Origin: Escherichia phage NHEP10 | Sequence record: PQ511148.1 | Reading direction: 5' to 3' (one strand) | DNA length: 64,000 nucleotides | Shown: piece by piece, positions 4,113 through 4,700 of the stretch | How positions within the stretch are numbered: the stretch's first letter is position 1 | How the letters are laid out: each line of letters begins with the position of its first letter | The notes under the pieces: generated by a model | What the model was told of the DNA's origin: nothing | Databases searched by the model: none | The model's input: the letters and a program-made list of their open reading frames with translations, nothing else | Translations under genes and position numbers: made by a program

Positions 4113-4141
4113 ATTATACTCCATCCATCCTTGGATGTAAA
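4113..4141 (-). promoter_or_regulatory. Early promoter cassette (TTTACA - 17 bp - TATAAT), variant of repeated cassette
   Basis: mRNA-sense TTTACATCCAAGGATGGATGGAGTATAAT; near-identical to cassettes at 4671, 46920, 47941. Confidence 0.55.
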
Positions 4142-4144
4142 ACA

Positions 4145-4639
4145 TTAATTAAGAATATTAACTACTGCACTACGTGGAACAACACTAAAATCACCGGCAT
4201 GAACAACGTTCAGAAGTTCAACCCCATCTTCAATCCACTGATCAGTTACCCATCCATTTACTGGACCAGCGAACGGGCGTCGAATTGAAACATATTTACA
4301 CAATAAATCAGTAGGCTCAATAGGCTTAATCAGAGTACCGTACATACAAGCGATATCCATATCAATACAGATGTCTTTAACTGGTTCTACTTCTTCAATC
4401 AACAGTTCAAAGTCGGTGCTCGGAAGGGCGGTAGTAGAAATTGTACCGTGTGAATTTTTAATTTCTAAGAATAACCAAGGGCCTTCAGCTTGTTTGATGA
4501 AGTTAACAATAGTGAAACTATTACCTTGAGTGGCACCTAAAATTTCACAAAACTTTTCATAAGCTCGCACTGAAGCACCGTACCAGTTGATTTGTTTTTC
4601 GTCTTTCAGGATGTAAGTAGCCGTAGTATTGATATTCAT
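4145..4639 (-). CDS. Hypothetical protein, member of tandem paralog trio
   Basis: ORF track; C-terminal block GWVTDQWIEDGVELLNVVHAGDFSVVP shared with ORFs at 3198 and 3627. Confidence 0.6.
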   Translation of the reverse strand: MNINTTATYILKDEKQINWYGASVRAYEKFCEILGATQGNSFTIVNFIKQAEGPWLFLEIKNSHGTISTTALPSTDFELLIEEVEPVKDICIDMDIACMYGTLIKPIEPTDLLCKYVSIRRPFAGPVNGWVTDQWIEDGVELLNVVHAGDFSVVPRSAVVNILN

Positions 4640-4670
4640 AATGTTTTTCCTGTTTGGTTAAGATAGAAAG

Positions 4671-4700
4671 ATTATACTCCAACCATCCTTGGTTGTAAAC
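4671..4700 (-). promoter_or_regulatory. Early promoter cassette GTTTACA - 17 bp - TATAAT
   Basis: mRNA-sense GTTTACAACCAAGGATGGTTGGAGTATAAT, textbook -35/-10 spacing. Confidence 0.6.

Follow-up and report, generated by a model that had tools for sequence, protein, structure and literature searches.

Near-identical early-promoter cassettes with a conserved spacer hairpin at the borders of accessory genes in a T4-type coliphage

Introduction

Why would a phage place nearly the same 30 bp in front of four genes at two distant loci, and what does the stretch between the two promoter boxes of that repeat do? We addressed these questions in a 64,000-nt stretch of Escherichia phage NHEP10 (PQ511148.1), which was analysed in full and is called the window below. 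The window belongs to a T4-type coliphage of the RB69/JS09 group (Mosigvirus), with NHEP29 as its best match (98.5% identity). An earlier note on this DNA had described a promoter cassette repeated at four sites, each preceding a gene of a tandem array, and had proposed that the repeats could co-regulate the flanked genes and drive their gain or loss by recombination.

Four copies of one early-promoter cassette

A search of the whole window for the 30-mer ATTATACTCCAACCATCCTTGGTTGTAAAC, allowing up to three mismatches, returned exactly four matches, all on the minus strand, compared with none in 100 shuffled controls. Two of these are exact (cassette B, 4671–4700, and cassette C, 46920–46949) and two are variants (cassette A, 4113–4142, three mismatches, and cassette D, 47941–47970, two mismatches). 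The four-site repeat was therefore borne out; the coordinates first given for it hold for the exact copies, while the ends given for the variants (4141 and 47968) fall 1–2 nt short. The 30-mer also maps to four places in NHEP29, the closest relative, so the window seems to include every copy.

In the mRNA sense the cassette reads G-TTTACA-ACCAAGGATGGTTGGAG-TATAAT, with a 17-nt spacer between the hexamers. Likeness among the four loci is restricted to positions of about −36 to −7 and a weakly similar leader. Each cassette starts 0–8 nt past the stop codon of the upstream gene (at D, the −35 element directly adjoins it), and an ATG with a Shine–Dalgarno (SD) sequence in front lies 27–31 nt past TATAAT. 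The order is thus upstream stop, −35, hairpin-forming 17-nt spacer, −10, leader of ~24 nt, SD, and ATG. Cassette A lies upstream of motB, B upstream of motB.1, C upstream of nrdC.3, and D upstream of an nrdC.5-like gene.

In a sigma-70 scan the four cassettes, with their 17-nt spacers, were the top matches in both loci (scores of 11/12, 11/12, 11/12, and 10/12), and they are among ~19 promoters of the T4 early type (GTTTAC...TATAAT, the boxes at −36 to −31 and −12 to −7) on the minus strand of the window. Cassettes B and C read GTTTACA-N17-TATAAT, whereas the −35 deviates at A (TTTTACA-N17-TATAAT; TTTTAC) and at D (ATGTACA; ATGTAC). All four share their orientation with early-gene orthologs just downstream. 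Comparison of coordinates with the published list placed the RB69 equivalents (8344–8373, 8904–8933, 50976–51005, and 51999–52028 for A to D, respectively) within Pe:8387, Pe:8947, Pe:51019, and Pe:52042, which are among the early promoters predicted for RB69 by Nolan et al. 2006 (PMC1524935, supplementary file 3); the promoter call is therefore not new, and the cassette site is also labelled 'promoter' in two GenBank records. The −35 and −10 boxes, spacing, orientation, and location agree with the T4-type early promoters of that study, but the shared spacer, the hairpin, and the link to indels are not noted there, and all four cassettes lack the TGn extended −10.

It is very probable, in our assessment, that the four sites act as early promoters of the T4 type, depend on sigma-70, and belong to the PeSL kind (see below). 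This agrees with the promoter assignment of the earlier note, given their near-consensus boxes, correct spacing and orientation, appropriate distance to SD and ATG, and presence on the RB69 list. Weighing against it, promoter activity and start sites are predicted from sequence. The genes motB, motB.1, nrdC.3, and nrdC.5-like would each be transcribed from the cassette in front of them, and the flanked genes would then be co-regulated.

Natural recombinants at both cassette pairs

Does identity between neighbouring cassettes lead to gain and loss of the genes between them? In phages AV110 and AV118, cassettes C and D are represented by a single hybrid, in which the upstream flank of D and its −35 (ATGTAC) are joined to the leader of C and nrdC.3. 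The 319-aa nrdC.5-like gene is precisely missing from both, and their nrdC.6-like gene is 97% identical. This hybrid junction is contiguous in 21 of the 153 matching records and split in the remaining ones. For the other pair, the A/B hybrid junction was built in silico from the recombination hypothesis and then searched for in relatives. It was recovered as one 343-bp piece with 97–98% identity in seven records representing six phages (NHEP36, phi25-307, G2285, RPN187, AV115, and AV118), which consequently do not have motB.1, while in other relatives it matched as two pieces ~900 bp apart. In the hybrids of NHEP36 and phi25-307, the flank and the G in the first −35 position come from B and the stem variant and leader after them from A, which places the crossover inside the −35 hexamer TTTACA. 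Both units, motB.1 and the nrdC.5-like gene, are missing in AV118, AV115, and G2285.

Recombination between cassettes is shown by this comparison of genomes, and the clean natural recombinants at both cassette pairs, one of them predicted beforehand, are a new result of the present sequence analysis. The gain or loss of flanked genes that the earlier note had anticipated is thus matched by single hybrid cassettes with the intervening gene missing, and the comparison of gene content in relatives that it had called for found the cassettes present there, in genotypes with two, three, and four copies (2–4 per genome by BLAST, with two places in AV118). Mechanistically, the ~27–30 bp of identity serves as a homology patch for the phage recombination system. 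Crossing-over between neighbouring cassettes removes one unit of gene plus cassette and leaves a single hybrid cassette, and the reverse event would add one such unit; crossing-over of this type accounts for the two-, three-, and four-cassette genotypes in RB69-like phages. A point to be set against this reading is that the direction of the indels, deletion or insertion, is unpolarised in these comparisons.

The 4-nt block after the −10 is polymorphic at site C, being either A-type (GAAT) or B-type (CTTT; RB69 and AV118). The CTTTC leader of AV118 is no proof of exchange between the two distant loci, since RB69 has the same block at its own C cassette.

Elements combining an early promoter with a stem-loop, known as PeSLs, have been described in RB49/phi1, PST/T4, and nt-1/KVP40 (Arbiol et al. 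2010, PMC2839356; Comeau et al. 2014, PMC4122927). In this class the stem-loop may lie between the boxes, overlap one of them, or flank the promoter, and its placement between −35 and −10 is among the most frequent. PeSLs, like the cassettes, are intergenic (after the upstream stop codon and an AT-rich stretch), combine an early promoter of the sigma-70 type with a stem-loop, and have an SD and ATG behind them. They are concentrated in hyperplastic regions, mark exactly where close relatives differ by indels of single genes, and recombine with neighbouring copies so that the gene between is deleted. The cassettes have the promoter boxes, the stem-loop, the intergenic position, and the indel borders of this class. 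By layout they are PeSLs in the published sense, and the earlier interpretation was essentially right. Excision of mini-circles between neighbouring copies, as described for the class, would here release circles of 558 bp (A/B) and 1021 bp (C/D). At the same time, there are differences: the cassettes occur in RB69-like phages, which go unmentioned in the 2010 paper (PMC2839356); their stem is short, weak, and not of the polyG/polyC type, making terminator activity doubtful; and the loop with its closing pairs, CA-AGGA-UG, is invariant across genera, a feature without mention in the consulted portions of the PeSL papers. The lambdoid 'morons' (a gene with its own promoter and terminator) resemble the cassettes in that single accessory genes carry their own expression signals, but the junctions of the cassettes fall inside the promoter cassette itself.

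The spacer hairpin and its conserved core

What, then, is held constant between the promoter boxes? The spacer can form a hairpin with a 6-bp stem and a 4-nt loop, CAACCA-AGGA-UGGUUG, situated wholly between −35 and −10. On the minus strand of the window it occupies 4122–4137 at A (CATCCA-AGGA-TGGATG), 4680–4695 at B (CAACCA-AGGA-TGGTTG), 46929–46944 at C, and 47950–47965 at D. Its stem differs between lineages, with CAUCCA/UGGAUG in A and in JS98-like phages, CUUCCA/UGGAGG in one lineage, and, in T4, AGCCA/UGGCU upstream of nrdC.3 and CCACA/UGUGG upstream of nrdC.4 and rIIA.1. Across an alignment of 12 distinct loop-centred variants, 90.3% of cells were paired, compared with 17–42% in slid control alignments. 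Double changes were seen in four of the six stem pairs, pair 8/19 occurs as AU, UA, GC, and CG, and two G.U pairs are present on the sense strand. This pattern of covariation suggests that the spacer hairpin is under selection as a paired structure and is clearly maintained.

Several points weigh against such selection or against a strong structural role. The hairpin is weak (−6.9 kcal/mol, z of −0.3 to −1.8 relative to shuffles), it is followed by no U-tract, and a terminator scan of both loci found nothing terminator-like in the cassettes, so that the attenuator role shown for RB49 PeSLs is doubtful here. The alignment rows for T4 rIIA.1 and nrdC.7 were taken from a hairpin scan and are hence biased toward pairing, and several lineages have a U-to-C change that disrupts the closing A-U pair. 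In addition to that, T4 is the classic system for templated mutation in quasi-palindromes, a process that could give 'compensatory' changes in the absence of selection.

The core CA-AGGA-UG is nearly invariant. It is kept in Mosigvirus, Dhakavirus, Tequatrovirus, and Jiaodavirus, whereas the outer stems around it take at least six forms. In the window, sense-strand CARGGATG is found only within these hairpins (4/4), and four of its five matches in T4 are in hairpins; matches on the antisense strand come without stems. A T4-type 34-mer is present in 703 records, mostly at two copies per genome. Klebsiella Jiaodaviruses share its first 26 nt with 100% identity, in front of different genes (cef, and a gene after denB). 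In JS98-like phages the cassette is 90–93% identical and the protein encoded behind it 23% identical. Conservation of the core across genera and before differing genes indicates a spacer constrained well beyond the needs of a promoter. The diversity considered here comes from GenBank phages because sampling of IMG/VR gave few loci (4–6 with protein anchors, 13 with a motif scan). No Rfam 15 family matched anywhere in the window at the gathering score. As delineated by these alignments, the cross-genus subfamily of early promoters with a covarying spacer hairpin and an invariant loop resembling the binding site of the host regulator CsrA is new here.

T4 itself (AF158101) has four AGGA-hairpin sites, upstream of rIIA.1, nrdC.3, nrdC.4, and nrdC.7; those in the promoter spacers of rIIA.1, nrdC.3, and nrdC.4 are at 2433–2450, 49893–49906, and 50950–50963, respectively, on the minus strand. 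The boxes of the T4 nrdC.3 copy are degenerate (TTTAAA and TATAAA), and one relative, L021, also has a broken stem, suggesting that this copy is decaying. In the rIIA.1 ortholog of the closest relative, the AGGA hairpin is absent and another hairpin, of a long-stem type, is present.

The core also recurs in a related element, GCTTTACCCAAGGACGGGTTATAAT, at 48995–49019 on the minus strand, directly after nrdC.8 and upstream of the nrdC.6-like gene. Here the CCAAGGAYGG core of the early cassettes sits in a short stem (ACCC..GGGU), and the boxes are a MotA-box-like GCTTTA and, 13 nt on, TATAAT. Judged by the pattern of MotA-dependent middle promoters, (a/t)(a/t)(a/t)TGCTTtA, 11–13 nt, TAtaAT, the sequence aaCGCTTTA has one mismatch in the MotA box. 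Upstream of nrdC.7, T4 has cCGCTTTA, 12 nt, and TATAAT. At the equivalent position after nrdC.8, T4 and JS98-like phages carry TTATACCA-AGGA-TGGTATAA with stem arms UUAUACCA/UGGUAUAA (T4 AF158101, 53333–53352; L015, 6399–6418; L011, 3712–3731), an 8-bp stem that takes in part of the −10 box.

Read-through RNA and candidate roles of the hairpin

Since the hairpin lies upstream of the start site of its own promoter, it would exist only on RNA read through from upstream genes, and it most likely acts on such read-through transcripts. A different kind of hairpin at many other early promoters of the window suggests a like logic. Stems of −17 to −22 kcal/mol were predicted there, with the spacer pairing with the SD in two of the three that were folded. 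Long-stem early promoters of this type lie on the minus strand of the window at 15835–15905, 57795–57863, 3145–3208, and 49545–49612 (z down to −4.7). The −35/−10 spacer supplies the 5' arm, the loop contains the −10 box, and the downstream SD forms the 3' arm (for example, CUCCAGUAGUUG...CAACUACUGGAG), except at 49545–49612, where the 3' arm is the +1 region. Sequestration of the SD would then be limited to read-through RNA, the promoter's own transcript leaving it free, and the AGGA hairpin may by the same logic mark read-through RNA. Hairpins that sequester the ribosome-binding site on read-through transcripts are known in T4 for the lysozyme gene e, soc, gene 49, and I-TevI. They are like the cassettes in having their 5' part upstream of the proximal start site, and thus in forming on read-through RNA only. 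The AGGA hairpin, however, is unpaired with the SD, so translational silencing, if any, must use a trans-acting factor. The GGAG that follows the hairpin is a conceivable site of RegB cleavage.

A possible, though not probable, identity for this factor is the host RNA-binding regulator CsrA, for which the hairpin would be a high-affinity site. The SELEX consensus for CsrA is RUACARGGAUGU, its GGA lying in the loop on stems that are short and vary, and in glgC and ColE7 cel an upstream or intergenic hairpin is combined with an SD site for CsrA (PMC2896534). The core of the cassettes, CAAGGAUG, agrees with CARGGAUG at 8/8 positions and has AGGA as its loop; as would suit such a site, a fixed loop with fixed closing bases sits on stems that vary. 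The motif is restricted to hairpins on the transcribed strand, and it is kept across phages of Escherichia, Shigella, Yersinia, and Klebsiella. From the loop GGA to the SD GGA is 34–38 nt at B, C, and D. Known CsrA sites (the glgC leader, the ColE7 cei-cel T1 hairpin with the cel SD, and the CAGGAUG repeats of CsrB) share with the cassettes the CARGGAUG core and, in the case of ColE7, the intercistronic position; the GGA in the downstream SD at B, C, and D would be a putative second site at bridging distance, as in the known examples. Indirect support comes from the stabilisation of CsrB during T4 infection (PMC9697503) and from csrA knock-down, which alters fitness under several phages (PMC7553319). 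A CsrA dimer might bridge the AGGA loop and the SD GGA on read-through polycistronic early RNA, with the effect that translation of the cistron is repressed, or stability or access of Rho changed, on read-through RNA only. Alternatively, abundant early RNA with such hairpins might titrate CsrA, as CsrB does.

Several observations speak against CsrA. Unlike the known sites, the putative site in the cassette hairpin is phage-encoded and lies within a promoter spacer, and our literature search found no published link between CsrA and T-even hairpins. The AGGA loop is also SD-like, which makes an interaction with the ribosome or 16S rRNA an equally easy reading. The SD of cassette A has no GGA, and because GGA is common in SDs, a second GGA at B, C, and D discriminates poorly. 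While the T4 version, ACAAGGAUGU, fits 10/12 consensus positions, the version in the window fits only 9/12, and 4–5 sites per genome are few for a sponge. The wider proposal, that a T-even early-promoter subfamily spanning Mosigvirus, Dhakavirus, Tequatrovirus, and Jiaodavirus embeds a near-optimal CsrA hairpin in its spacer and thereby marks read-through RNA, is tentative, with odds well short of even.

The spacer might instead be functionless, its identity between copies due to recent copying or gene conversion (concerted evolution) and its 'compensatory' changes to templated mutation of a quasi-palindrome. Recombination between cassettes clearly occurs, the GAAT/CTTT polymorphism at site C is as expected of conversion patches, and templated mutation in T4 quasi-palindromes is reportedly established (Ripley and colleagues). 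We nevertheless consider this reading unlikely. It does not sit well with a CA-AGGA-UG core found in four genera with at least six outer stems, nor with the recurrence of that core in a MotA-box-type promoter at a different distance to the −10. Cassettes are also 90–93% identical where the gene behind is 23% identical, and G.U pairs are tolerated on the sense strand.

As an attenuator or terminator, the stem-loop would stop transcripts arriving from upstream and make expression of each gene depend on its own promoter. There is precedent in RB49/phi1, where a PeSL stem-loop placed between promoter and lacZ lowered expression to roughly the extent seen with the rrnB T1 terminator (PMC2839356), and the position of the cassettes right after the upstream stop codon fits. 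The RB49 stems, however, are long and of polyG/polyC, unlike the cassette stem, which has six base pairs, three of them G-C, and at −6.9 kcal/mol is no better than shuffles. The hairpin is followed by GAGUAUAAU instead of a U-tract, the terminator scan was negative at both loci, and the invariant AGGA loop would be left unexplained. The cassettes thus fail to show the G+C-rich stem and U-tract of an intrinsic (Rho-independent) terminator, a candidate that we dropped on these sequence criteria, and attenuation in general appears quite unlikely.

Least plausible, and in our view very unlikely, is a DNA operator at which a dimeric protein (a phage early product, conceivably of the MotB family) would shut early promoters off by blocking RNA polymerase. 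Repressors classically sit between the two hexamers, motB-family genes lie behind two of the four promoters, and the mechanism of early-promoter shut-off in T4 is reported to be unknown (PMC2988021). Against this, the outer half-site bases change yet stay complementary, an unusual behaviour for half-sites that are sequence-specific; AGGA, the conserved centre, lacks symmetry; core and −10 are 0 to 8 nt apart, depending on the version; and G.T pairs break the symmetry of the DNA.

Neighbouring genes and annotated starts

All genes next to the cassettes are on the minus strand, and the nrdC.3, nrdC.5-like, and nrdC.6-like names follow T4 and RB69 naming. In the first locus these are motB (3627–4082, 151 aa) and motB.1 (4145–4639, 164 aa), the latter forming a 558-bp unit with one cassette. 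In the second they are the nrdC.3 ortholog (45941–46891, 316 aa, 57% identical to T4 NrdC.3), the nrdC.5-like gene (46954–47913, 319 aa, a 1021-bp unit with one cassette), and, directly upstream of cassette D, the nrdC.6-like gene (47970–48959, 329 aa). The description of a tandem array is apt for the motB genes, where motB, a motB-like gene, and motB.1 have a C-terminal domain in common. It does not apply to the nrdC locus, whose three proteins (316, 319, and 329 aa) have no detectable similarity to one another and belong to three different PHROGs; gene duplication is thus no explanation for the identical promoters there and was rejected as their source.

Cassettes A and D are read through by open reading frames (ORFs) continuous with the gene behind (3627–4145, MFYIQGWMEYN..., and 46954–47973, MMYNQGWLEYN..., respectively), as the earlier note had stated for every copy; at B and C this is not so. 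Trimming of gene starts is accordingly needed at A and D, where the true starts are the ATG at 4082 for motB, not the read-through start at 4145, and the ATG at 47913 for the nrdC.5-like gene. The same over-extension affects the MotB coding sequence of NHEP36 (L034, PQ511151; 1–315), which starts 42 nt too far upstream, through the cassette, while in phi25-307 (L035; 1–273) the coding sequence starts at the downstream ATG. We rejected 'YNQGWLEY' as a real peptide, as it is in frame with the downstream ORF only at A and D and curated relatives use the downstream ATG. A mini-ORF within the cassette, ATG-GTT-GGA-GTA-TAA (MVGV), was likewise discarded, being unconserved in the T4 and site-D contexts and having an SD that abuts the AUG. 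A link to T4 replication origins was also set aside, with oriA at gene 56/soc and oriC near rI.-1, neither of them at motB or nrdC.3–5.

The gene motB.2 (window 2614–3138; T4 7661–8161) follows downstream of the motB genes in the window, as in RB69, but lies between dexA and motB.1 in T4. This hyperplastic block has thus undergone shuffling of gene order in addition to gene content.

Other elements in the window

A possible fifth cassette near 28766 was rejected because only TTGGAGTATAAT is held in common and the hairpin there differs (UUCG). This region (28766–28800, minus strand) has a tetraloop hairpin, GGGAC-UUCG-GUCCC (−12.7 kcal/mol), followed by UUGGAGUAUAAU, which is the −10-proximal block of the four cassettes; a convincing −35 is absent at that site. 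Another conserved hairpin, with an 8–9 bp GAAAAUUUUC-type stem around UAAGGAUG, is located at 57200–57207 of the window and 62139–62146 of T4, both on the minus strand, inside the vs.1 coding region near regB, and could hold an internal SD and AUG within its stem.

Two further sets of repeats were seen on the plus strand. A 77-nt direct repeat (32564–32640 and 32828–32904, 74% identity, 264 nt apart) is apparently within adjacent small paralogous genes. Repeated gene-start regions at 60220–60289, 60544–60613, and 61305–61334 (76–87% identity, spaced by 324 and 760 nt) suggest that several small paralogous genes, alike in their 5' ends and leaders, follow one another.

Significance

The cassettes provide a clean, checkable natural example of how T4-type phages gain and lose single accessory genes. 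With the crossover falling within a 30-bp promoter, every product keeps an intact promoter. They also explain why gene starts are repeatedly over-extended in the GenBank records of these phages, which are candidates for therapy. With the conserved AGGA hairpin, what had been a vague 'stem-loop' becomes a specific hypothesis, testable in T4 itself. Binding by CsrA or the ribosome, if it occurs, would show how the treatment of read-through early transcripts differs from that of promoter-proximal ones. Were the CsrA reading true, the hairpin would be the first control element in T4 early mRNA to depend on a host RNA-binding protein, and the stem-loops of PeSLs would gain a function other than termination.

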